A DNA stretch of 64,000 nucleotides from an uncultured Catenibacterium sp. (lineage in GTDB: Bacteria > Bacillota_I > Bacilli_A > Erysipelotrichales > Coprobacillaceae), in the NCBI RefSeq assembly GCF_900540665.1, contig NZ_UQGV01000001.1, positions 4,967 to 68,966 on the forward strand, given 5' to 3'. The notes beneath the pieces are model-generated. The model worked only from the letters and a program-made list of their open reading frames with translations. It ran no database searches and was not told the DNA's origin. Position 1 is the stretch's first letter. Every line of letters begins with the position of its first letter. Position numbers and translations under genes: made by a program. Shown piece by piece: positions 2,639-28,498 of this stretch.

Positions 2639-2680
2639 ATATTTTATTTTTTCTATACTATGAGGATAGGAGGGATTGCC

Positions 2681-4129
2681 ATGGATTTATTTGTGAAGCC
2701 AAGAAAAAGAGAAAACATTGATGCACATAATGCATATATATTAGGAAGTGACTTTACTAGCTTAGTGACTGCCTGTTATTTATTGAGAGATGGTTCATTA
2801 AAGGGTGAACATATTCATATTATAGATTCAGTAGATTCATTTCACCATTATGAGTCTTATCTTTCTTTTGTAGATAATCGTAGTCTCTATTTATGGGATA
2901 TATTACGTTCTATACCTTCTATAGAAACAGAGGGACTCACTGTTTTAGATGAAATGACTTATTTAAATCATGATGCACCTATGAAGACTATTCATAATAT
3001 ACAATTAAGTGATCAATTAATATCAGAACTAGTTCATTTCTTCTTTACTTCAGATGAACAATTAGAAGGTAAACAGATTAAAGATGTATTCAGTCAGGAC
3101 TTTATGGAATCTGATTTCTATTATTATTGGCATGCTTTATTTCCAGTCAATGATGCTTATTCTTTTAAAGTGACATTACATCGCTATATGCATATATTGA
3201 CCTCGCACAGCATGATTTCTCCTAAGTACTGTATATATGAATCAGTGATTGTACCTATTATAGAATATCTAGAGGCACATCATGTAGTCTTCCATTTCAA
3301 TACTGAAGTGACTCATATAGAAACAGAAGACAATAAAGCCACTGCCTTTTCTATTAAGAGTGAAGGCATGGAAGAAACTATAGATTTGACAAATCAGGAT
3401 CTTCTATTTATTCATACTAGTCAAAGTAAAGATTCTATAGGGCATGCAGTTATTACAACTCATTATGAAAAGATCATCTATTACTTAAGAAATATACTTC
3501 AAAAAGATCCACTTTCTGGTGAAGATATTACAGGTGGTGTTATTCCAATTAATGAATCAGCCTGGGAGCTCAACTGGACAATACCAAGACAGCCTTACTA
3601 TAAGAACCAGAAAGAGAATGAATGTGTTATTTTACTTCATGGATTACATCCAGAGAAGACAGGTGATTATGTAGCAAAGTCTATGCTAGAAAGTAAAGGC
3701 TATGAGATATGTGCAGAATGGCTTTATCATTTAGGTATTCCACAAGATAAAATCAATGAATTCTCATTGATGTCTGCTTCTACCGTTCCTTACACTCATA
3801 CTAGTACTCATTGTGAAGCACACACCAATGGATTAAATTATGCTTATATAGGTGAAGGAGTTTCATTACCTTATGAATATCCAGGTAGCTTAGATTATCT
3901 TGTGCATACCGCAATGAATGCAGTGTATAGTTTATTACATATCACTAGAAGTATTCCAGCTTATCGTTATTCTATTGAAGACTATTTAAGTGTCTTCTCA
4001 TCTTTATATGGTGATGAGACATTCATGGAAACTCAGTCATTCACAAAACGTCTTGTCTTAAAAGAGTTGTTAAAAAGAATAGAGGGCTCTGATCTAGAAG
4101 CCCTATTAAAGGAATATAAGTTCTTCTAG
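2681..4129 (+). CDS. oleate hydratase (MCRA) family homolog with a degenerate dinucleotide-binding motif
   Basis: The N-terminus FVKPRKRENIDAHNAYILGSDFTSLVTACYLLRDGSLKGEHIHII aligns with the oleate hydratase N-terminus (FARPKKPENVD..AYIIGSGLAGLAAA.FLIRDG..GE.IHILEE). The GxGxxG motif is replaced by GSDFTS and the following E-E-L-P-x-A-G-G-S-L-D motif is absent. At 482 aa it is shorter than the ~590 aa typical of the family. RBS taggaggg sits 6 nt before the ATG at 2681. Confidence 0.6.
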   Translation: MDLFVKPRKRENIDAHNAYILGSDFTSLVTACYLLRDGSLKGEHIHIIDSVDSFHHYESYLSFVDNRSLYLWDILRSIPSIETEGLTVLDEMTYLNHDAPMKTIHNIQLSDQLISELVHFFFTSDEQLEGKQIKDVFSQDFMESDFYYYWHALFPVNDAYSFKVTLHRYMHILTSHSMISPKYCIYESVIVPIIEYLEAHHVVFHFNTEVTHIETEDNKATAFSIKSEGMEETIDLTNQDLLFIHTSQSKDSIGHAVITTHYEKIIYYLRNILQKDPLSGEDITGGVIPINESAWELNWTIPRQPYYKNQKENECVILLHGLHPEKTGDYVAKSMLESKGYEICAEWLYHLGIPQDKINEFSLMSASTVPYTHTSTHCEAHTNGLNYAYIGEGVSLPYEYPGSLDYLVHTAMNAVYSLLHITRSIPAYRYSIEDYLSVFSSLYGDETFMETQSFTKRLVLKELLKRIEGSDLEALLKEYKFF

Positions 4130-4188: not shown

Positions 4189-4334
4189 GGCAGTCGTTTA
4201 TATGTCATGTCAACAAGGGCATGCAAAAACTTAAAGAACTAGGTATAGCGTTCTATACAAAAGAGAAATTAAAGAAAATGGACTATTCTTTATCAAGATA
4301 GTCCAATCATAAATTAAATAAATAGTAAATTGGT

Positions 4335-4402
4335 AAGCCGTATGCATTAATAGTGCACGTACGGTTTGATAAGGGGCTAGCCTAGTGATAGGTTAGCCTA
4401 CT
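4335..4402 (+). mobile_element. group II intron 3' fragment (domain V plus domain VI with a bulged A)
   Basis: Positions 4335-4367 read AAGCCGTATGCATTAATAGTGCACGTACGGTTT, which matches the domain V consensus (RAGCCGUAUG....CACGUACGGUUY). It has the AGC triad, the G-U pair, an AC bulge and a 9-bp lower stem. Positions 4374-4402 form the hairpin GGGGCTAGCCTA-gtga-TAGGTT(A)GCCTAC with a single bulged A, as expected for domain VI. There is no room upstream for domains I-IV and no IEP ORF. Confidence 0.7.
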
Positions 4403-4577
4403 TTCTTAGGTGCTCAAGTTCATCGGAACACTTGGTCACCCTAATCGGAATGAGTGATTAATTAAAGTGGAATAATAAACACCCTATCCTATATTTAACA
4501 GAATTATAAAAGAACGGAAAACAAATTATTAGTAAAATTCTTCTAAAAATATTACTTTGAATTATTCTTAATAAATA

Positions 4578-4585: not shown

Positions 4586-4607
4586 AATGATGTAAGGAGT
4601 GATTGTT

Positions 4608-4898
4608 ATGCCAGTTATTAAACCTATTTCAGATTTAAGAAATTATAATCAAGTGCTAGAAAAAGTATCTGTTGGCTCACCTGTTTATTTGACAAAAAAT
4701 GGTCATGGTTGTTATACGATTATGGATATCAATGAACAGGAGGAAATGTATGAAAAAGCAATGAAGTACGATAAACTTGTTGCTGAGATGAAACTTATGA
4801 GCATGTTAAATGAAAGTGTTGTTTCTGCTAATGAAGAAGGGTGGATTGATGAAGACGAAATGCTAAAACATTTTGAAAAGAGATTCAACAATGATTAA
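4608..4898 (+). CDS. type II antitoxin, Phd/YefM-like (partner of ParE)
   Basis: 96 aa protein with a Phd/YefM-like N-terminus (PVIKPISDLRNYNQVLEKV...PVYLTKNG...YTIMDINE) and an acidic C-terminal tail. RBS taaggagtg lies 6 nt upstream. It overlaps the downstream toxin by 8 nt. Confidence 0.7.
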   Translation: MPVIKPISDLRNYNQVLEKVSVGSPVYLTKNGHGCYTIMDINEQEEMYEKAMKYDKLVAEMKLMSMLNESVVSANEEGWIDEDEMLKHFEKRFNND

Positions 4899-5196
4899 AG
4901 TATTTTATTCACCAAAATCAAGAAAAGATTTGGATAAAATTTATGATTATATCTATGATGATTTGAATAATCCGATTGCAGCAGAAAAAACAGTAAAAGG
5001 AATTCTCAATAAAATTGGTGAAATTAAGGAATATCCTCGACTTGGACCAGTATGGTATTTAGAAAATAATATTGATAGTGGATTTCGATTTTTAACATGT
5101 GATAATTACATTATATTTTATCAGATTACTAAAGAAACTATTTTGATTGTACGAATACTACATCGCCTGCAAGATTATGTTAAACAATTATTTTAA
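4891..5196 (+). CDS. type II toxin, RelE/ParE family
   Basis: 101 aa protein whose C-terminus (...LTCDNYIIFYQI...ILIVRILHRLQDY) is typical of ParE/RelE. Its start overlaps the antitoxin stop, as usual for TA operons. Confidence 0.75.
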   Translation: MIKVFYSPKSRKDLDKIYDYIYDDLNNPIAAEKTVKGILNKIGEIKEYPRLGPVWYLENNIDSGFRFLTCDNYIIFYQITKETILIVRILHRLQDYVKQLF

Positions 5197-5262
5197 GAAA
5201 AGATATCAATTTTTACATGGTAGATTTATATAAAAATTTAATTCCAGTTTTATTTTATAATT

Positions 5263-5290
5263 GAGAGCCTTTTTTAAGGCTCTTTTTTGT
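5263..5290 (+). terminator. intrinsic terminator
   Basis: Stem gagagcctt, loop ttttt, stem aaggctctt, then ttttgt. Confidence 0.7.
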
Positions 5291-5299
5291 ATTAAAATG

Positions 5300-5335
5300 C
5301 TTTTTTTTATGAATGAAATGTGGTAGTATATTAAA
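5300..5335 (+). promoter_or_regulatory. his operon promoter (extended -10)
   Basis: The sequence tgGTAGTAT gives a TG-n-TAnnAT extended -10 at 5321-5329, about 24 nt before the leader ORF start. Confidence 0.4.
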
Positions 5336-5352
5336 AACCGAGGTGAATATTT

Positions 5353-5409
5353 ATGAAAAATACAATTTTTGTCAACAATTTACACCATCACCATCGTGGT
5401 TCTAGTTAG
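5353..5409 (+). CDS. histidine operon leader peptide (MKNTIFVNNLHHHHRGSS)
   Basis: 18-codon ORF with four consecutive His codons (cac cat cac cat). RBS aggtga lies 6 nt upstream. It sits between the promoter and a strong terminator directly before hisZ. Confidence 0.65.
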   Translation: MKNTIFVNNLHHHHRGSS

Positions 5410-5480
5410 GGTTATATCAATTTGATACAGCCCGTTTTGACATACAACTCAAAAAAGCGGACACGAAACAATGACATAAG

Positions 5481-5510
5481 GGAACAGGTCATTGGACCTG
5501 TTCCTTTTTA
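5481..5510 (+). terminator. his attenuator terminator
   Basis: Perfect 10-bp stem ggaacaggtc / gacctgttcc with a 4-nt loop, followed by ttttta. It ends 20 nt before the hisZ TTG start. Confidence 0.75.
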
Positions 5511-5530
5511 CATATAAGGGGGACATAACT

Positions 5531-6493
5531 TTGGAAGAATTTAAATATCTGATTCCTGAAGAAAGTAATGATGCAACTAGAATGGACGCTTCTTTAATGC
5601 GTACAATTGAAGGACATTTAAGAAAAACATTCAATGCACATGAATATCAGGAGTTATTATTACCTACATTTGAATATGCAGACTTGTTAAGTGGTTTTGG
5701 GACAAATGAAGAAACAATGTTTCAGTTTATCAATCATGAAGGCAAGCGTATTACGTTAAGAACTGACTTTACTGTACCGATTGCACGTATCTATAGTAAC
5801 GCTCATACAGATGAAGTAAGACGTTATAGTTATTTTGGTAAGGTATATCGTACCCAGGCACGACATAAAGGTAGAAGTTCAGAACTGTTCCAGGGTGGTA
5901 TTGAGTTATTTGGTCTTCCTGGACGTGAGGGAGATCAGGAATGCTTATCACTTATTGAAGAAACAATGCAGAATATTGGTTTAAGTGATTTAAAACTAGA
6001 ACTTGGTTCTGCAAAGTTCTATAAGCGTTTAATGGCTCTTGTAATGGATCGTTCTCTTACTGATATCTTAAAGAAAAAGAAAAGTTCTGATATGAAACAT
6101 TTAGTAGAAGCACATGATTTTGATGAAGATTTAAATAAACTCTTATTAATTCTTCCTAGTGCTTTTGGGAATATTAAATGTTTAAGAGAAGTAAAAGAGA
6201 TTGTGAAGGATGAAGAACTTCTAGAAGCTATTGAAGAGATGGAATCATTGTATGAGTTCTCTAATCATAAAGAGAATATGATCTTTGATTTATGCATGGT
6301 GCCTGAAAGAAGCTATTATACAGGTATTATGATGAAGGGATTCTCTTATTATAGTGCTCATCCAATTCTCCAGGGAGGACGTTATGATCATTTGTTTGAT
6401 CATTTCTATAAGAACGTACCTTCTATTGGATTCTCATATCATTTGAATAATGTATTGGATGCAATAGGAAAGGAGAATGAAGCCAATGATTAA
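5531..6493 (+). CDS. hisZ: ATP phosphoribosyltransferase regulatory subunit HisZ
   Basis: HisRS-like catalytic-domain paralog carrying the class II motifs ([18 protein letters not shown]). It is followed by a short-form hisG. The probable start is TTG at 5531 after RBS aaggggga; the ORF-track start at 5492 lies inside the terminator. Confidence 0.8.
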
Positions 6494-7109
6494 GATTGCG
6501 ATTACTAAAGGAAGAATAGAAAAGCAGGTATGTAAGTTATTACAACAGCAGGGCTTTGATATAGATCCTATTTTTAATAAAGACCGTGAGTTATTAATAG
6601 AGACAAAGGATGGTATTTCAATGATCTTTGCGAAAGCAAATGATGTATTGACTTTCCTAGAACACGGTATTGTGGATGTTGGATTTGTCGGTAAGGATAC
6701 TTTGGATGAATCTGATTTTGATGATTATTATGAGTTATTAGATTTAGAGATTGGTAAATGTTATTTTGCGTTAGCGGCTTATCCAGAATATCGCACAAAG
6801 ACATTTAATCGTCGTAAACGTATTACTTCTAAATATACAAAGACCGCAAAAGAATATTTCGCATCTAAACAGGAGGATGTAGAAATTATTAAACTGGAAG
6901 GTTCTGTAGAGTTGGGACCTGTTGTTGGTTTATCTGATGCGATTGTAGATATTGTAGAAACAGGATCTACACTTAAGGCCAATGGTCTTGAAGTGATTGA
7001 AAAGATTTCAGATATTTCTACAAGAATGGTTGTGAATAAAGTGGCTTTAAAATATAAGAAGGATGAAATATTCAAACTAGTGGATGCACTAAAGAAGGGG
7101 GATCATTAA
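6477..7109 (+). CDS. hisG: ATP phosphoribosyltransferase, short form (HisGS)
   Basis: 210 aa. N-terminus [13 protein letters not shown] and the GSTL motif are typical of HisG. It overlaps the hisZ stop. An alternative start lies at 6486. Confidence 0.9.
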
Positions 7110-7110
7110 A

Positions 7111-8406
7111 GTGTTAAAAGAATTGATTTATAAAGGAAACTATGAAGAACTAGAAAATAAACTTCATACAAGAAAAACTGAAATATCTGAAGAAGTCAAT
7201 AAGGCAGTCAGTGAAATCATTAATAATGTACGTGAAAATGGGGATGATGCATTAAAGGAATACTGTGCTAAGTTTGATGGTTTCCATGTTTCTAGAAAGG
7301 ATGATTTCATCGTTTCTAAACAAGAAATCATGGATGCTATTACTAAGGTAGGACCTGAATTCATGAAGATTCTAGAACGCACAAAGGATCAGATCACTGA
7401 ATATCATAAGAACCAGATTGAAAAATCATGGACTATGTATAAGGATAATGGTGTTGTCATGGGACAGTTAGTGCGTCCAATCGCCACAGTGGCTTTATAT
7501 GTGCCAGGTGGAACGGCTACTTATCCTTCTACTGTTATGATGAATGCTGTACCTGCAAAGCTTGCAGGTGTAGAAGATCTTTATATTATTACACCAGTAA
7601 AGAAGGATGGTAAGGTCTCTGATGTTATTTTAGCTGCTGCTTATGTAGCTGGTATTACTAAGATTTATAAATGTGGTGGAGCACAGGGTGTTGCCGCTGC
7701 TGCTTATGGAACTGATACAATTACGAAGGCAGATAAGATTGTGGGTCCAGGTAATATCTTTGTCGCAACTGCAAAGAAGTTATGTTATGGAGTCGTTGAT
7801 ATTGATATGATTGCCGGACCTAGTGAAATTCTTATTGTCGCTGATGAGAACGCAAATCCTAAATATATCGCAGCTGACTTAATGAGCCAGGCTGAACATG
7901 ATAAGCTTGCCAGTGCGATTCTTATTACAACTTCAAAAGAATTAGTAAAGAATGTAGATGAAGAATTAGTTAGACAGGTAGAAGACTTACCTCGTAAAGA
8001 CATCATCAAGTCTTCATTAGATAACTATGGTGGTGCTGTTATTGTAGATAGTATCAAGGAAGGTATTAACTTATCTAATAAGATTGCACCTGAACATTTA
8101 GAAGTATTAGTAGATAACCCATTAGAACAATTACCAAATATCAAGAACGCTGGTTCTATCTTCTTAGGTGAATATACACCAGAACCATTAGGTGACTATA
8201 TGAGTGGTACAAACCATGTATTACCAACAGGTGGTACTGCTAAGTTCTATAGTGCTTTAGGTGTTTATGATTTCGTAAAACATTCTGCTTTCAGCTATTA
8301 TCCACAGGCAGTACTTGGCACATTCAAGGATGATATTATGAAGTTTGCACATCTAGAAGGTTTAGATGCACATGCTAATAGTATCAAGGTACGTTTCGAG
8401 GATTAA
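7111..8406 (+). CDS. hisD: histidinol dehydrogenase
   Basis: 431 aa with conserved HisD blocks (SEILIVADE..., EHLE, GDY.SGTNHVLPT). GTG start. Confidence 0.9.
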   Translation: MLKELIYKGNYEELENKLHTRKTEISEEVNKAVSEIINNVRENGDDALKEYCAKFDGFHVSRKDDFIVSKQEIMDAITKVGPEFMKILERTKDQITEYHKNQIEKSWTMYKDNGVVMGQLVRPIATVALYVPGGTATYPSTVMMNAVPAKLAGVEDLYIITPVKKDGKVSDVILAAAYVAGITKIYKCGGAQGVAAAAYGTDTITKADKIVGPGNIFVATAKKLCYGVVDIDMIAGPSEILIVADENANPKYIAADLMSQAEHDKLASAILITTSKELVKNVDEELVRQVEDLPRKDIIKSSLDNYGGAVIVDSIKEGINLSNKIAPEHLEVLVDNPLEQLPNIKNAGSIFLGEYTPEPLGDYMSGTNHVLPTGGTAKFYSALGVYDFVKHSAFSYYPQAVLGTFKDDIMKFAHLEGLDAHANSIKVRFED

Positions 8407-8409
8407 TTT

Positions 8410-8997
8410 ATGCGACAGGCAGAAATAGAAAGACAGACAAAAGAGACATATGTATATGTTTCTTTAAATATTGATGGTAAAGGAGAAGCAGATGTGGATA
8501 CAGGTGTAGGGTTCATGGACCATATGCTTGAGCTTCTTGCTTTCCATGGTAATTTTGATTTAAAGGTAAGATGTAAAGGTGATCTACAGGTTGATTCTCA
8601 TCATACTGTAGAAGACTTAGGGATTGTCTTAGGACAGTGCTTCAATAAAGCTTTAGGTGATAAGCGTGGTATTACCCGTTATGGTCATTTTACTATCCCT
8701 ATGGATGAAGCACTTGTGACGACTGACTTGGATTTTAGTGGACGTCCTTATTTAGTTTTTAATGTGGAACTAGATAATATTCATCTAGGTAATTATGAAG
8801 TAGAAATGACAGAAGAATTCTTCCGTGCATTTGCCTATAACTGCTTCATGACTTTACATATTAATGAACATTATGGTAAGAATACACATCATATTATAGA
8901 GGCAATATTTAAATCTATGGCACGTGCCATCAAGGAGGCTGTCACAATTGATGAAGCCCACATTGGGCAGGTAGTATCAAGTAAAGGGGTGTTATAA
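8410..8997 (+). CDS. hisB: imidazoleglycerol-phosphate dehydratase
   Basis: 195 aa. IGPD motifs are present (DHMLELLAFHG..., HHIIEA). Confidence 0.9.
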   Translation: MRQAEIERQTKETYVYVSLNIDGKGEADVDTGVGFMDHMLELLAFHGNFDLKVRCKGDLQVDSHHTVEDLGIVLGQCFNKALGDKRGITRYGHFTIPMDEALVTTDLDFSGRPYLVFNVELDNIHLGNYEVEMTEEFFRAFAYNCFMTLHINEHYGKNTHHIIEAIFKSMARAIKEAVTIDEAHIGQVVSSKGVL

Positions 8998-9606
8998 ATG
9001 ATTGCGATTGTTGATTATCATGTAGGAAATCTTGGATCAGTCACAAATGCTTGTAAAAGACAGGGGATGGATGTAGTTGTCACAAATGATCCTGAAGTTA
9101 TTCGTCAGGCGGATGGCATTATTTTTCCTGGTGTTGGCGCATTTCCTGCAGCTATGAGTAATTTAGAAGCATGTCATCTTGTACCTGTACTTAATGAAGT
9201 GAAGGATAAGGGAACACCAATACTTGGTATTTGTATTGGGATGCAGCTTTTATTTGAAGAAGGCAGTGAGAATGGACATACAAAGGGATTAGGATTCTTA
9301 AAGGGTTCTGTCGATAAGATGGAAGTCGATGCAAAGCTTCCACATATGGGATGGAATCAGTTAGTTATTAAACAGTCTCATCCTTTATTAAAGTATGTAG
9401 AAGAAGGCGATTATGTCTACTTTGTCCATTCATATAGTGCGCATTGTCCAGAAGATGAGATTGGGGCTTATGTGAATTATGGTGGTAAGAAGATTACTGC
9501 TTTTGTATATAAAGATAATGTCATGGGTACGCAGTTCCACCCTGAAAAGAGTGGAGAGATTGGTAAGAAGATCTTACGTGCCTTTAAGGAGTTGGTGTCA
9601 TGTTAG
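8998..9606 (+). CDS. hisH: imidazole glycerol phosphate synthase, glutaminase subunit
   Basis: 202 aa class I GATase (GICIGMQLL, the catalytic Cys, and H..E near the C-terminus). Confidence 0.9.
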   Translation: MIAIVDYHVGNLGSVTNACKRQGMDVVVTNDPEVIRQADGIIFPGVGAFPAAMSNLEACHLVPVLNEVKDKGTPILGICIGMQLLFEEGSENGHTKGLGFLKGSVDKMEVDAKLPHMGWNQLVIKQSHPLLKYVEEGDYVYFVHSYSAHCPEDEIGAYVNYGGKKITAFVYKDNVMGTQFHPEKSGEIGKKILRAFKELVSC

Positions 9607-10319
9607 TTATTCCAGCCATTGATTTAAAAGATGGAGAAGCAGTCCGTCTTTATAAGGGCGATTACAATAAGAAAGTTGTTTATTCATCACATCCTGAAGA
9701 ATTAGCAGCAGGATTTGAGAAGATGGGTGCAAAGTATCTCCATGTAGTAGATCTAGATGGTGCAAAAGATGCCCATGCAACTAATAAAGAAACAATTAAA
9801 AGAATACGTGCTGCTATTTCTATTCCCATGGAATTAGGAGGAGGTATTCGTGATATGGATACAGTCTCTATGTATTTAGATGAGATTGGGGTAGATCGTG
9901 TGATTCTTGGTACGGCGGCTATTAAGAATCCTGCTTTTCTTGATGAAGCATTAAAAAAGTATGGACCAGAAAGAATAGTCGTAGGAGTAGATGTAAGAGA
10001 TAGAAAGGTCAGTATTGCTGGCTGGCTTGAAACAAGTGATGTAGATTATCTGACATTTATTCATCAATTAGAAGAAAGAGGTGTGAAATACATAGTATGT
10101 ACGGACATCTCTAAAGATGGTACCCTCACAGGTCCTTCTTTCCCTCTTTATGAAGAAATACACGCTAATTCTAAGATTAACTTTGTCGTCTCTGGTGGTG
10201 TAAAAGATGATGAAGATGTCTATGAAGTTAATAAACGTGATTATTATGCCTGTATTGTAGGTAAAGCATACTATGAAGGGCGTATTAATCTAAAGGAGGT
10301 CATTGAAAATGCTGGCTAA
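9600..10319 (+). CDS. hisA: ProFAR isomerase
   Basis: 239 aa. N-terminus reads [15 protein letters not shown]. Confidence 0.9.
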
Positions 10320-11076
10320 AAGAATTATTCCCTGTCTAGATATTAAAGATGGGAAGGTTGTAAAAGGTGTTAATTTCGTTGGCCTGAAGGATGTTGGTGA
10401 CCCCATTGAACTAGCGAAAGAATATGACCGTCAAAGTGCAGATGAAGTTGTCTTTCTAGACATTACTGCTACATATGAAAATAGAGACATCATCAAGGAC
10501 CTGATCCAAAGAGGGGCTGATGAACTTTCTATTCCACTATGTGTGGGTGGCGGTATTCGTACAGTTGAAGACTTTCGTATGATTCTTGCAGCAGGTGCAG
10601 ATAAGGTATCTGTTAACTCAGCTGCCGTCAAGAATCCAAATATTATTAAGGAAGCCAGTGATGAGTTTGGTGTTCAATGTGTAGTTGTCGCAGTAGATGC
10701 CAAGGCGAGAGAAGACCATTCTGGATGGGATGTCTATGTTGCAGGTGGACGTACAAATACTGGACTCGATTTAATAGAATGGGTTAAGAAATGTGAATCT
10801 CTTGGTGCTGGTGAAATACTTCTTACAAGTATGGATGCGGATGGAACAAGAGATGGATTTGATATCGATATGTTGAAGGCAGTAGTGGCAGCAGTTAATA
10901 TTCCAGTTATCGCAAGTGGTGGCTGTGGTGGTAAAGAAGATATCGTAGATGTCTTTAAAGAAACAGACTGCGATGCTGCATTAGCTGCAAGTTTATTCCA
11001 CTTTGGTGAAGCCACAGTGGATGAAGTTAAGGAATCCTGTGCACAGGCAGGTATTCCAGTAAGGAGAAATATGTAA
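10303..11076 (+). CDS. hisF: imidazole glycerol phosphate synthase, cyclase subunit
   Basis: 257 aa. N-terminus reads [16 protein letters not shown]. Confidence 0.9.
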
Positions 11077-11717
11077 TGAAACCAGATTTTGAGAAAATGA
11101 ATGGTCTTGTACCTGCAATTGTACAGGATGTCAAGACTAAACAGGTATTAATGCTTGCTTATGTGAATGAAGAAGCCTATGAAAAGATGTTAGAAACAGG
11201 AGATACTTGGTTCTATTCACGTTCAAGAAATAAACTATGGCATAAAGGGGAAGAATCAGGACATTTCCAGCATATTAAGGGTCTTTATTTAGATTGTGAT
11301 TTAGATACAATCGTTATTTATGTAGAACAGGTCGGAGCTGCTTGTCATACAGGTTCTTATTCTTGCTTCTTTAATGAAGTGATTCCTTATGACAATAGTG
11401 ATTTTGCACATGAACTTTATGATCTTATTGAAGATAGAAAAGTACATCCAGTAGAAAAATCTTATACAAACTACTTATTAAATGAAGGTATTGATAAAAT
11501 CTGTAAGAAGGTTGGAGAAGAAGCGACTGAAACAGTTATTGCAGCTAAGAATACATCTAAAGAAGATTTAATTGGTGAAATCGGCGATTTATATTATCAT
11601 GTATTAGTCTTAATGAGTGTCTATGGTTTAACTGTAGATGATGTTTTAGATAAATTAAAGGAAAGACATAAGGTGACAGGCAACAAAAAAGTATTCCATA
11701 CAAGAGGAGAGATTTAA
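11076..11717 (+). CDS. hisI: bifunctional phosphoribosyl-AMP cyclohydrolase / phosphoribosyl-ATP pyrophosphatase
   Basis: 213 aa. N-terminal HisI domain (LVPAIVQD...WFYSRSR) and C-terminal HisE domain. Confidence 0.9.
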
Positions 11718-11761: not shown

Positions 11762-13231
11762 ATGAAATTAGAAAAGTTATTAAATGGTTTTGAATATGAA
11801 ATCATTGGGAATAAAGATGTCGATATTACAACATTAGTCTATGATTCACGTAAGGTAGAAGAAGGCAGCTTATTTGTCTGTATGGTTGGTGCTGCTTTTA
11901 ATGCACATGATTTTATTGATCAGGTGATTGAAAAAGGAGCCCATGCGATTGTGATTTCTCAGGATGTACCTTTAAAAGAGGGGATGACTTATATTAGGGT
12001 CAAGGATACACGTATTGCGTTGGCTTTATTATCTTGTGCTTATTTTGATTATCCTAGTAAGGAATTAAAGGTAGTTGGTATTACAGGAACAAAAGGTAAG
12101 ACAAGTTCTTCATTAATGATCAAGTCTATTCTAGAACATGCAGGTAAGAAGGTTGGTATTATTGGGACAAATGGTACTTTTATTGGAGATATCCATGAAC
12201 CTACAGCCAATACAACACCAGAATCTTATGAATTACAGCGTATCATGAGAAAGATGGTAGAACATGATTGTGAATACTGTGTGATGGAAGTATCAAGTCA
12301 AGCTTTGAAAATGAACCGTGTTGCTGGTATTGAATTTGATTATGGTGTCTTTACAAATATTTCACCTGATCATATTGGTCCAAATGAACATAAGGATTTT
12401 GCGGAATATATGGCATGTAAGAAACATTTATTTGATTTCTGTCAGGTTGGTTTATTTAATAAGGATGATGAACATTTTGAAGAGTTCACAAAGGATGTTC
12501 CTTGCAAGGTATTAACATACAGTATTGAAAAAGACAGTGATCTTAAAGCTCTCCATATTGAGTTATATAATGAGAATGGTGAATTAGGTATTACCTTTGA
12601 TACGAAGGGATTGATTAATGCCTCTTTTAAAGCTTCTATGCCAGGTAAGTTCAATGCCTATAATGCATTAGTGGCCATTATGATCTGTTATTTAATTGAT
12701 GTACCTACAAAGGATATACAAAATACATTACCACAGGTTCATGTATTAGGTAGAGGACAAGTTATGCATGTCTCACCTGATTATAGTGTATTAATTGATT
12801 ATGCTCATAATGGTGTTTCTTTTGAAAGTATTATTTCTACTGTAGAACAATATAATCCTAATAAGCTAATTGTTGTCTATGGTAGTGGAGGAAAACGTTC
12901 TAAAACAAGACGATATGAATCAGGAGAAGTAGTCGCAAAGCATGGTGGTTATTCTATCTTGACTGCAGATAACCCAAGAGGAGAAAAGATTGTAGATATC
13001 TGCAAGGATATCGTAGTCGGTATTGATAAATATCATGGTGAATATACTATTATTCCTGACCGTAAAGAAGCCATCTATCATGCATTAGATATGGCTAGTA
13101 AGGGTGATGTTGTCTTATTACTTGGTAAAGGTCATGAAACATATATGATTGGTGAAGATGAAGTGACACGCCATTTCTCTGAAACAGAAGTATTAGAGGA
13201 ATATAAGAAGGAGCGTGGACTCAATGCGTAA
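11762..13231 (+). CDS. murE: UDP-N-acetylmuramoyl-L-alanyl-D-glutamate--2,6-diaminopimelate (or L-lysine) ligase
   Basis: 489 aa Mur ligase with the GITGTKGKTS P-loop and the MurE domain order. It lies between hisIE and the histidinol phosphatase gene. Confidence 0.9.
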   Translation: MKLEKLLNGFEYEIIGNKDVDITTLVYDSRKVEEGSLFVCMVGAAFNAHDFIDQVIEKGAHAIVISQDVPLKEGMTYIRVKDTRIALALLSCAYFDYPSKELKVVGITGTKGKTSSSLMIKSILEHAGKKVGIIGTNGTFIGDIHEPTANTTPESYELQRIMRKMVEHDCEYCVMEVSSQALKMNRVAGIEFDYGVFTNISPDHIGPNEHKDFAEYMACKKHLFDFCQVGLFNKDDEHFEEFTKDVPCKVLTYSIEKDSDLKALHIELYNENGELGITFDTKGLINASFKASMPGKFNAYNALVAIMICYLIDVPTKDIQNTLPQVHVLGRGQVMHVSPDYSVLIDYAHNGVSFESIISTVEQYNPNKLIVVYGSGGKRSKTRRYESGEVVAKHGGYSILTADNPRGEKIVDICKDIVVGIDKYHGEYTIIPDRKEAIYHALDMASKGDVVLLLGKGHETYMIGEDEVTRHFSETEVLEEYKKERGLNA

Positions 13232-14012
13232 GATTGATTATCATATGCATACACATTTTAGTGGTGATAGTGAATCAAGTCCTCGTGAACATATTGAACA
13301 GGCAATTAGAATGGGATTAGATGAAATATGTTTTACGGATCATCGTGATTTTGATTATCCTATTGATACATTTGATCTAGATACAGATGCTTATTTCATG
13401 GAACTGAGTGCCTTGAAGAATGAATATGTAGACCGTATTACTATTAAGATTGGTGTAGAAGTTGGATTAGACACAGATCATATTGATGAAATCAATGAAT
13501 TTGTATCACAATGTCCTTTTGATTATGTTATTGGTTCTATTCATGTCATTCATCATACAGAATTCTATTATGGAGAATTCTTCAAGGGTAAGACTAAAGA
13601 AGAAGCACATAGAGAATTCTTTGAAGAAACATTAAAATGTGTACAGACATTTGACTGTTTTAATTGTTTAGGTCATTTAGACTATATTATGCGTTATGGC
13701 CCTTATGAGGATAAACGTGTAGAACATGAATTGTATCAGGATATTATTGATGAAATCTTAAAGACACTTATTCAAAAGGGTAAGGGTATTGAAGTCAATA
13801 CATCGGGATATGCATTAAATAAGACATGTGGGTTCCCTAATTTTGATATTGTGAAGCGTTATAAAGAATTAGGTGGTACAATTATTACTGTTGGTACTGA
13901 TTCTCATACAAGTGATCGTGTAGGAGAACATGTAGATGATGTTTTAAAACATTATCAGGAAATTGGTTTTGACGATGTAACTACATTCACAAAAAGAGTG
14001 AAAGATAATTAA
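13215..14012 (+). CDS. histidinol-phosphatase, PHP family (HisK/HisJ type)
   Basis: 265 aa. N-terminus IDYHMHTHFSGDS together with the other PHP-domain histidines. It overlaps the 3' end of murE. Confidence 0.85.
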   Translation: MDSMRKIDYHMHTHFSGDSESSPREHIEQAIRMGLDEICFTDHRDFDYPIDTFDLDTDAYFMELSALKNEYVDRITIKIGVEVGLDTDHIDEINEFVSQCPFDYVIGSIHVIHHTEFYYGEFFKGKTKEEAHREFFEETLKCVQTFDCFNCLGHLDYIMRYGPYEDKRVEHELYQDIIDEILKTLIQKGKGIEVNTSGYALNKTCGFPNFDIVKRYKELGGTIITVGTDSHTSDRVGEHVDDVLKHYQEIGFDDVTTFTKRVKDN

Positions 14013-28424: not shown

Positions 28425-28498
28425 AGGGGCTTGGTCCAATGGTAGAACATCGGTCTCCAAAACCGTTGATACGGGTTCGATTCCTGTAGCCCCTGCCA
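28425..28498 (+). tRNA. tRNA-Trp (anticodon CCA)
   Basis: AGGGGCTTGGTCCAATGGTAGAACATCGGTCTCCAAAACCG...GGTTCGATTCC...AGCCCCTGCCA. The 7-bp acceptor stem, the GGUCU-CCA-AAACC anticodon arm and the encoded 3' CCA closely match bacterial tRNA-Trp. Confidence 0.9.

Follow-up and report, generated by a model that had tools for sequence, protein, structure and literature searches.

The 64,000-nt stretch of Catenibacterium DNA analysed here (the window) carries a histidine biosynthesis operon, and its first gene, hisZ, is preceded by a leader that contains a small open reading frame (sORF) with a run of His codons, followed by a terminator hairpin. Based on sequence comparison and folding models, we consider it very likely that this leader acts as a ribosome-mediated leader-peptide transcription attenuator and that read-through into hisZGDBHAF(IE) depends on charged tRNA-His. 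The first-pass annotation of the window proposed the same function, which gains support from the conservation of the His run and from mutually exclusive pairings with compensated changes. Neither of the two contrary outcomes that it had named for sequence comparison was obtained, as orthologous regions keep the His run and no T-box scores. The novelty in Firmicutes that this annotation implied does not hold. His attenuators were already predicted for bacilli (Naville and Gautheret, 2010; PMC2965389) and for Erysipelotrichales including Catenibacterium mitsuokai (Ashniev et al., 2022; PMC9413887), and the latter prediction concerns the same species and the same element. The present analysis confirms the element, extends its species range and makes the helix model more explicit; it is not a discovery.

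The histidine-codon leader and its conservation

Reading the leader region at positions 5100-5700 of the window recovered all elements that had been listed in the first-pass annotation, with some positions shifted by a few bases (Table 1). The sORF of 18 codons with four consecutive His codons is present and has a good ribosome binding site, as annotated. The extended -10 element was also found, but its end lies 20 nt upstream of the leader Shine-Dalgarno (SD) sequence where about 17 nt had been given. Likewise, the GC-rich 10-bp hairpin with its T-run exists and begins 71 nt past the leader stop codon (about 70 nt in the annotation), and it leaves 21 nt rather than 20 nt before the TTG start of hisZ. 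Transcription probably starts at about 5326-5328, a few bases past the extended -10. A simple sigma-70 scan, which requires a -35 element, did not report the extended -10 at 5311-5319. A simple consensus terminator scan listed only the terminator of the preceding gene (5263-5284) and omitted the hairpin at 5481-5509, probably because the stem of this hairpin can extend into the T-run. The terminator has a folding energy of -16.7 kcal/mol for its 10 bp and of -19.9 kcal/mol with the A/U extension. RNAfold gave -46 kcal/mol for the leader (z = -4.4 against shuffles), with the terminator hairpin in the minimum free energy (MFE) structure.

The four His codons are presumably the regulatory codons at which a ribosome would stall when His-tRNA is scarce. 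Runs of four CAY codons (CAYCAYCAYCAY) occur three times in the window, counting both strands, against 0.25 expected. The other two runs (39440 and 47984) were rejected as leaders, since both lie within long ORFs on the opposite strand. Chance can be excluded as an explanation for the His-run leader, because such runs are rare, the other two are inside ORFs and the arrangement recurs in 51 of 52 species.

This recurrence was established on a comparative set of 52 species-level Erysipelotrichales loci that were anchored on HisZ. An in-frame sORF with a His run precedes hisZ in 51 of these loci, and the run is kept while the neighbouring codons drift, which is the pattern for which the first-pass annotation had suggested an alignment across related genomes. 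Across the 51 loci the sORF retains its ATG, its frame and its His run, and its stop codon, which overlaps the conserved AGGGTTATATC, stays in place; the N-terminal half drifts, and the sORF is 11-28 codons long as called. Typical leader peptides are MKKTILNQQFHHHH(H)WNT, with MKNTRNYSKLHRHHHRT in Sharpea and MKNTIFVNNLHHHHRGSS in Catenibacterium, and the peptide of the window is identical to that of one locus of the set (L003). Nearly all 51 loci have a purine-rich SD (GAGGTG, or the variants GGGGTG, GAAGGTG and GAGGTA) 6-8 nt before the leader ATG, and nearly all have a TRTGnTAnnAT extended -10 at a constant distance upstream of that SD. The His run comprises 3-5 codons and occurs as 17 different sequences, which differ mostly by synonymous use of CAT (155 codons) and CAC (61 codons). 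In a few species an Arg codon (CGY or AGA) takes the place of one His codon. Leaders with such a replacement are those of L012, L023, L029, L031, L051, L005 and L006 (CAT CGC CAT CAT and the like, one transition from CAC/CAT), and some are brought down to three His codons by it.

The distance from the leader stop to the hisZ start is 107-132 nt in 50 loci. It is 233 nt in Thomasclavelia spiroformis An567 (L037; 2714-3001), where leader and terminator are intact and about 110 nt extra are found between the terminator and hisZ. The sole locus of the 52 without a His-rich sORF and conserved leader is that of an uncultured Coprobacillus sp. (L024; 1-838). Its region upstream of hisZ is unrelated to the others and matched no Rfam family, T-box included.

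Alternative structures of the leader RNA

Structural conservation was assessed on an alignment of 43 leaders (A2), with base pairs counted on its 42 distinct sequences. The alignment contains the conserved segments S0 (CAUCAUUGGA, the last two His codons and UGG), S1 (AGGGUUAUAUC), S2 (GAUACAGCCCAUUUUG), S3 (UGGGUGUAUC) and S3' (CUAAUGAC), and the terminator segments S4 and S5 (..GAGUCAUUAG/GACUC..) with the U-run. Folding of single sequences, both with a ribosome mask and without it, pointed to two helix sets: a terminating set with S0:S3' (P0), S1:S2 (P1) and S4:S5 (T), and an antiterminating set with S2:S3 and S3':S4 (AT). Since RNAalifold, run on the unedited alignment, detected P1 and the terminator only in part, the helices were specified by hand and their pairs counted. 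For P0, P1 and T together, 91.3% of the cells are standard pairs, against 31-48% when the partners are slid by 1-3 columns, and ten pairs have changed on both sides. None of 500 shuffles reached the observed values, whether in percentage paired, in cell count or in covariation score. The double changes fall in T (seven of the nine counted pairs) and in P0 (three). The terminator is found in 43 of the 43 aligned leaders with a T-run of at least four, and of at least five in all but one.

The helix that involves the His-codon region, P0, is 86% paired in its family register, and Catenibacterium has two double (compensatory) changes in it. Most species have a Trp codon (TGG; A2 columns 19-21) right after the His run, which is best explained by the pairing of UUGG with CUAA in P0 (with one G·U) and not by the peptide. 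Catenibacterium and Sharpea do not have this codon, and they show a shifted or alternative register of P0; Catenibacterium retains the family register too. P1 is paired in 98.9% of its cells, and its sequence is highly conserved and almost invariant.

The AT helix (CUAAUGAC:GUCAUUAG) is 98% paired and has two compensatory positions. At position 98-133, 34 sequences have U-A and the four of Catenibacterium have C-G; at position 102-129, 39 sequences have G-C, and Sharpea (two species) and Eggerthia have A-U. Leaders of the Thomasclavelia type have GUCAUUA:UAAUGAC within the terminator stem itself, so that the upstream CUAAUGAC literally copies the terminator 3' arm, which is the classic antiterminator design. 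The antiterminator loop partner is altered in L029 and L051 (GTCAGAG and GTCAAAG), two of the leaders with a His to Arg replacement. The S2:S3 (2:3) helix, 80.7% paired and with little covariation, was rejected as the main antiterminator, because it makes no contact with the terminator and is degenerate in Catenibacterium.

The first-pass annotation had advised to fold the leader and look for mutually exclusive terminator and antiterminator structures, and these are found in the window: the antiterminator 5469-5475:5488-5494 (7 bp, -5.5 kcal/mol) excludes the terminator at 5481-5504, and compensatory changes accompany it in the family. The P0 strand UCGUGGUUC (5394-5402) can pair in two registers, either with 5459-5466 (P0', -7.9 kcal/mol), which is the register in the MFE structure, or with AACAAUGA at 5467-5474 (the family register, -3.3 kcal/mol). 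The latter retains seven of eight pairs in the window despite changes on both strands, including the two double changes. The S1/S2 motif occurs once in the window (0 expected), without a second copy. Right after P1 follows a conserved U-rich tract (family form CCCAUUUUG), which may be a hairpin-dependent RNA polymerase pause that synchronises ribosome and polymerase. The interval corresponding to 5434-5454 differs between genera: it contains S3, a partner of S2 alternative to P1, in the others, and a small hairpin in Catenibacterium.

When the terminator was forbidden in the folding of the window sequence, the best fold was an extended antiterminator at 5452-5509 (-14.7 kcal/mol), in which the inner helix is flanked by G5465-C5497, GGACA:UGUUC (5459-5463:5499-5503) and AAAAAG:CUUUUU. 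This fold sequesters the terminator 3' arm and the U-run. In the predicted unstalled state GGACA is already taken by P0', and UCAAAA by the small hairpin with UUUUGA (5435-5440).

Table 1. Positions in the window of the his operon, its leader and the predicted RNA elements
Feature	Position	Strand	Sequence and basis
Regulated operon hisZ-hisG-hisD-hisB-hisH-hisA-hisF-hisIE	5531-11717	+	ORF list and NCBIfam assignments
Extended -10	5311-5319	+	TGG-TAGTAT (TGn and -10 hexamer 5314-5319), from sequence
Leader SD	5340-5345	+	GAGGTG, 7 nt 5' of ATG, from sequence
Leader ORF	5353-5409	+	18 sense codons and TAG, peptide MKNTIFVNNLHHHHRGSS; ATG 5353-5355, TAG 5407-5409
Four consecutive His codons	5383-5394	+	CAC CAT CAC CAT, from sequence
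Predicted anti-antiterminator (P0), 5' strand	5394-5402	+	UCGUGGUUC; last base of His4 and Arg-Gly-Ser codons
Predicted hairpin P1	5409-5433	+	S1 GGGUUAUAUC (overlaps G of stop codon) : S2 GAUACAGCCC; -8.4 kcal/mol
Conserved U-rich tract	5434-5439 (interval 5434-5454)	+	GUUUUG, right after P1; alignment A2
Predicted small hairpin	5435-5440 / 5449-5454	+	UUUUGA/UCAAAA; window folding energies
Predicted P0', 3' strand	5459-5466	+	GGACACGA; also within 5' strand of extended antiterminator
Predicted antiterminator, 5' strand	5469-5475	+	CAAUGAC, pairs with 5488-5494
Predicted antiterminator, 3' strand	5488-5494	+	GUCAUUG; last 3 nt of terminator 5' arm and whole terminator loop
Terminator hairpin and T5 (U5)	5481-5504 and 5505-5509	+	GGAACAGGTC / ATTG / GACCTGTTCC (RNA GGAACAGGUC-AUUG-GACCUGUUCC); 10-bp stem
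hisZ SD	5516-5523	+	AAGGGGGA, from sequence
hisZ	TTG 5531 to 6493	+	NCBIfam match below curated cut-off, yet unambiguous by family

Predicted mechanism and competing explanations

In the model that we favour, transcription would begin at about 5326 and the 18-codon leader would be translated while it is being made. With ample histidine, the ribosome would pass the four His codons, terminate at the UAG codon and depart. The segment 5394-5402 would then pair with 5459-5474 as an anti-antiterminator (P0/P0') and S1 with S2 as P1, so that the strand that can block the terminator would be occupied wholly or partly by P0/P0'; the terminator with its U5 would form and RNA polymerase would halt 21 nt short of hisZ. 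When histidine is scarce, the ribosome would stall while a His codon occupies its A site, and it would cover 5394-5402, by which P0 would be blocked, and CAAUGAC (5469-5475) would be able to pair with GUCAUUG (5488-5494). In Catenibacterium, a ribosome on the His codons would in addition free 5459-5466, and the antiterminator could zip outward over the terminator 3' arm into the extended form faster than the terminator displaces it. The terminator hairpin would thereby be delayed and the polymerase would proceed into hisZ.

Stalling was modelled by masking a ribosome footprint from -15 to +12 relative to the A site in a transcript that was cut just before the terminator 3' arm. The median antiterminator probability in the family increased from 0.49 for the free RNA to 0.83-0.90 for a ribosome stalled at the first or last His codon, and in about four species it went from about 0 to about 0.9. 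At full length, the median gap favouring the terminator was 7.2 kcal/mol free and 5.3-5.5 kcal/mol stalled. We regard this family-wide trend as suggestive. Equilibrium folding always favours the terminator, and the switch must therefore work kinetically, like that of other attenuators.

Several points weigh against an attenuator of this design. Firstly, all support for it in the Erysipelotrichales is comparative or thermodynamic. Secondly, the masked folds of Catenibacterium give an antiterminator probability of 1.0 in all states, with or without a stalled ribosome, and the terminator of the window is 7-10 kcal/mol more stable in every state; in Sharpea the antiterminator probability falls on stalling, which is the wrong direction. 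A ribosome at the stop codon acts like a stalled one in these folds, which does not fit an equilibrium switch. Since equilibrium folds fail to separate the states in Catenibacterium and reverse them in Sharpea, we do not put the thermodynamics forward as a demonstration of the switch. Thirdly, P1 is uninformative for the structure because its sequence is almost invariant, and much of the 2:3 helix likewise says little for or against it. The wiring proposed for Catenibacterium, with P0' holding the outer strand of the extended antiterminator, relies on four near-identical sequences. Lastly, Johnson et al. (Nature, 2020) reportedly found transcription and translation to be uncoupled in Bacillus subtilis; if this also applies to the Catenibacterium lineage, attenuation would need a dedicated pause.

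The preference of equilibrium folding for the terminator would also suit a constitutive or leaky terminator, or an insulator against, for example, read-through from the toxin-antitoxin genes upstream, in which case the His-rich sORF would be untranslated and conserved as RNA structure only. The upstream genes are indeed on the same strand, and the last His codons sit in P0, so that pairing alone constrains some of them. However, the first two His codons are outside P0 and still remain CAY in all species, and 51 loci retain the SD, the ATG and the frame although their upstream neighbours differ. The upstream gene moreover has its own terminator at 5263-5284, after which a conserved promoter element follows, and a conserved covarying antiterminator would serve nothing in a constitutive terminator. 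It seems therefore improbable that the leader works in this way.

About equally improbable is that the stalled ribosome controls the translation of hisZ, by SD sequestration or mRNA stability, instead of transcription termination. The 2022 supplement speaks of 'translational attenuators' in its title (PMC9413887), and the pyrimidine-rich terminator 3' arm with the U-run (CCUGUUCCUUUUU) is close to the hisZ SD. Yet the hairpin is a canonical intrinsic terminator, a GC-rich stem with at least five U directly behind it in almost every one of the 43 leaders, and the hisZ SD is outside it and unpaired in the predicted folds. Regulation by a DNA-binding HisR-type repressor at the promoter, with leader elements that are secondary or vestigial, appears very improbable: his operons of Firmicutes are most often regulated by HisR, but according to the same publication (PMC9413887), which is the source for this judgement, the Erysipelotrichaceae are a family without a HisR regulon.

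Least probable of all, to a degree that we would hardly count it, is a T-box or other tRNA-His riboswitch, where uncharged tRNA-His binds the leader with a His codon as the specifier and stabilises an antiterminator without translation. T-boxes are the usual RNA-based regulators of his genes in Lactobacillales and in some Erysipelotrichales (PMC9413887), and the conserved His codons could in principle act as specifiers. However, a search of the leader (5150-5650) with Rfam 15 at E<=10 gave no T-box (RF00230), no His_leader (RF00514) and no other relevant family, only chance-level matches to, for example, snoRNA and miRNA models, and the whole window and five related loci gave neither a T-box nor a His_leader at the gathering score; the first-pass annotation had also seen no T-box consensus. 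The leader past the sORF is with about 100 nt too short for a T-box Stem I plus antiterminator, and the conserved SD, ATG, frame and stop indicate translation.

Relation to known attenuators and genomic context

Leader-peptide attenuation of amino-acid operons is textbook knowledge in enterics and rare in Firmicutes, which mostly use T-boxes, HisR and RNA-binding proteins. The leader of the window resembles the enterobacterial hisL (RF00514) in having a putatively translated sORF with tandem His codons, predicted alternative helices in a chain and an intrinsic terminator before the first his gene, and as in hisL termination would also be expected when the leader is untranslated. It differs from hisL in that there is no detectable homology in sequence or structure (RF00514 gave no match at E<=10), the operon begins with hisZ and not hisG, the host is a low-GC Gram-positive, and the run has four His codons (3-5 in the family) whereas that of E. 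coli has seven.

Ashniev et al. (2022) surveyed Firmicute his operons without HisR and T-box control, found no RF00514 matches in Firmicutes, and described candidate attenuators with 3-5 consecutive His codons in the B. cereus group, in Peptostreptococcaceae/Lutispora and in six Erysipelotrichales (PMC9413887). In their description a leader peptide that has 3-5 His codons is followed by an attenuator hairpin and a terminator, and a potential antiterminator is given as well; the hisZ of C. mitsuokai DSM 15897 (peg.1377) is included (Additional file 6C), with the operon marked 'Attenuator' (Additional file 2). As far as leader peptide, hairpins and operon are described there, nothing essential sets the element of the window apart from theirs; its HisZ is 98% and its locus DNA about 98% identical to C. 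mitsuokai DSM 15897. Beyond that study, whose alignment covers six species, our analysis contributes the 51 species-level genomes, the pair-by-pair covariation and a helix that joins the antiterminator strand to the region of the His codons.

Naville and Gautheret (2010) had previously described, for bacilli, a His leader peptide in front of hisZ (PMC2965389). The His attenuators of both studies are computational predictions without experimental validation. The leaders of the B. cereus group, found upstream of hisZ and of a hisS paralogue (PMC2965389, PMC9413887), are likewise computational predictions and resemble the leader of the window in being from a Firmicute and in combining a His-codon sORF with a premature terminator; they belong to another lineage, and the likeness is one of published description. 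That ribosome-mediated transcription attenuation operates in Firmicutes is shown by two leader-peptide attenuators studied experimentally, that of S. aureus ilv-leu with its Leu-rich peptide (PMC5794164) and that of B. subtilis bmrCD (PMC4191407). These systems respond to other signals (Leu codons and antibiotic-stalled ribosomes, respectively) and control other operons, and they have no sequence relation to the Catenibacterium leader.

The attenuators of Peptostreptococcaceae/Lutispora (PMC9413887, Additional file 6B) have the same architecture and align with the Erysipelotrichales family from the His codons through S3'. This was seen in one MAFFT alignment (A3) of window positions 5383-5512 with three published leaders (Lutispora, Terrisporobacter and Acetoanaerobium). 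The shared motifs are S1 (AGGGTT.GTAT), S2 (..GATACA.CCC) and S3/S3' (GGGTTGTAGCTATGATG vs GGGTGTATCTAATGAC), and in both groups a helix is possible between the His codons and the strand that follows S3 (CAUCAUAG:CUAUGAUG in Peptostreptococcaceae/Lutispora and CAUUGGAU:AUCUAAUG in Erysipelotrichales). Differences are found in the terminator stems, in the longer peptide tail past the His run and in the operon order hisZGCBHAFIE of the Peptostreptococcaceae/Lutispora. The alignment hints that the two groups may form a single wider RNA family, with convergence as the alternative. A more far-reaching proposal is that of one homologous family absent from Rfam, a three-layer switch in which the His codons form the anti-antiterminator strand and which was rewired in Catenibacterium to sequester the outer strand of the extended antiterminator (5452-5509); we hold this to be tentative and rather doubtful.

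For annotation, the label 'hypothetical protein' is not appropriate for the leader sORF, and hisZ expression is best read as presumably histidine-dependent. The conserved His attenuator of common human-gut Erysipelotrichales could be a test bed for ribosome-polymerase coupling and pausing in this phylum. If the response to histidine holds in vivo, it would offer a tractable case of ribosome-coupled attenuation in the Firmicute phylum, where transcription-translation coupling is disputed.

The N-terminus of the hisZ product, translated from TTG 5531, matches the start of its homologues, which all belong to the Erysipelotrichales. At one genome per species, the best HisZ matches are Catenibacterium (98%), including C. 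mitsuokai DSM 15897, and the DNA of the window is 97.98% identical to a contig of that strain over 4.9 kb, from about window position 4598. Because the alignment only begins there, the block upstream of about 4598 may be strain-specific.

The genes at 4599-5196 (+), immediately before the his leader, encode a Phd/YefM-like antitoxin, with a match below the Pfam cut-off, and a ParE toxin, and they are followed by their own terminator at 5263-5284. Further upstream, an ORF of the MCRA family (2660-4129; 489 aa) matches profile positions 3-276 of 495, and just downstream of it the group II intron model RF00029 matches at 4333-4406 (+) with 41.7 bits, where the gathering score is 40. Near this match no ORF for a reverse transcriptase was seen. 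Downstream of the operon, murE (489 aa) lies between hisIE and a gene for a HisJ-family histidinol phosphatase (11762-14012, +), and the phosphatase ORF overlaps murE. This cell-wall gene among histidine genes is possibly co-transcribed with the attenuator-controlled operon. The window also contains a single tRNA gene at 28425-28495 (+; Rfam tRNA, 60.9 bits).

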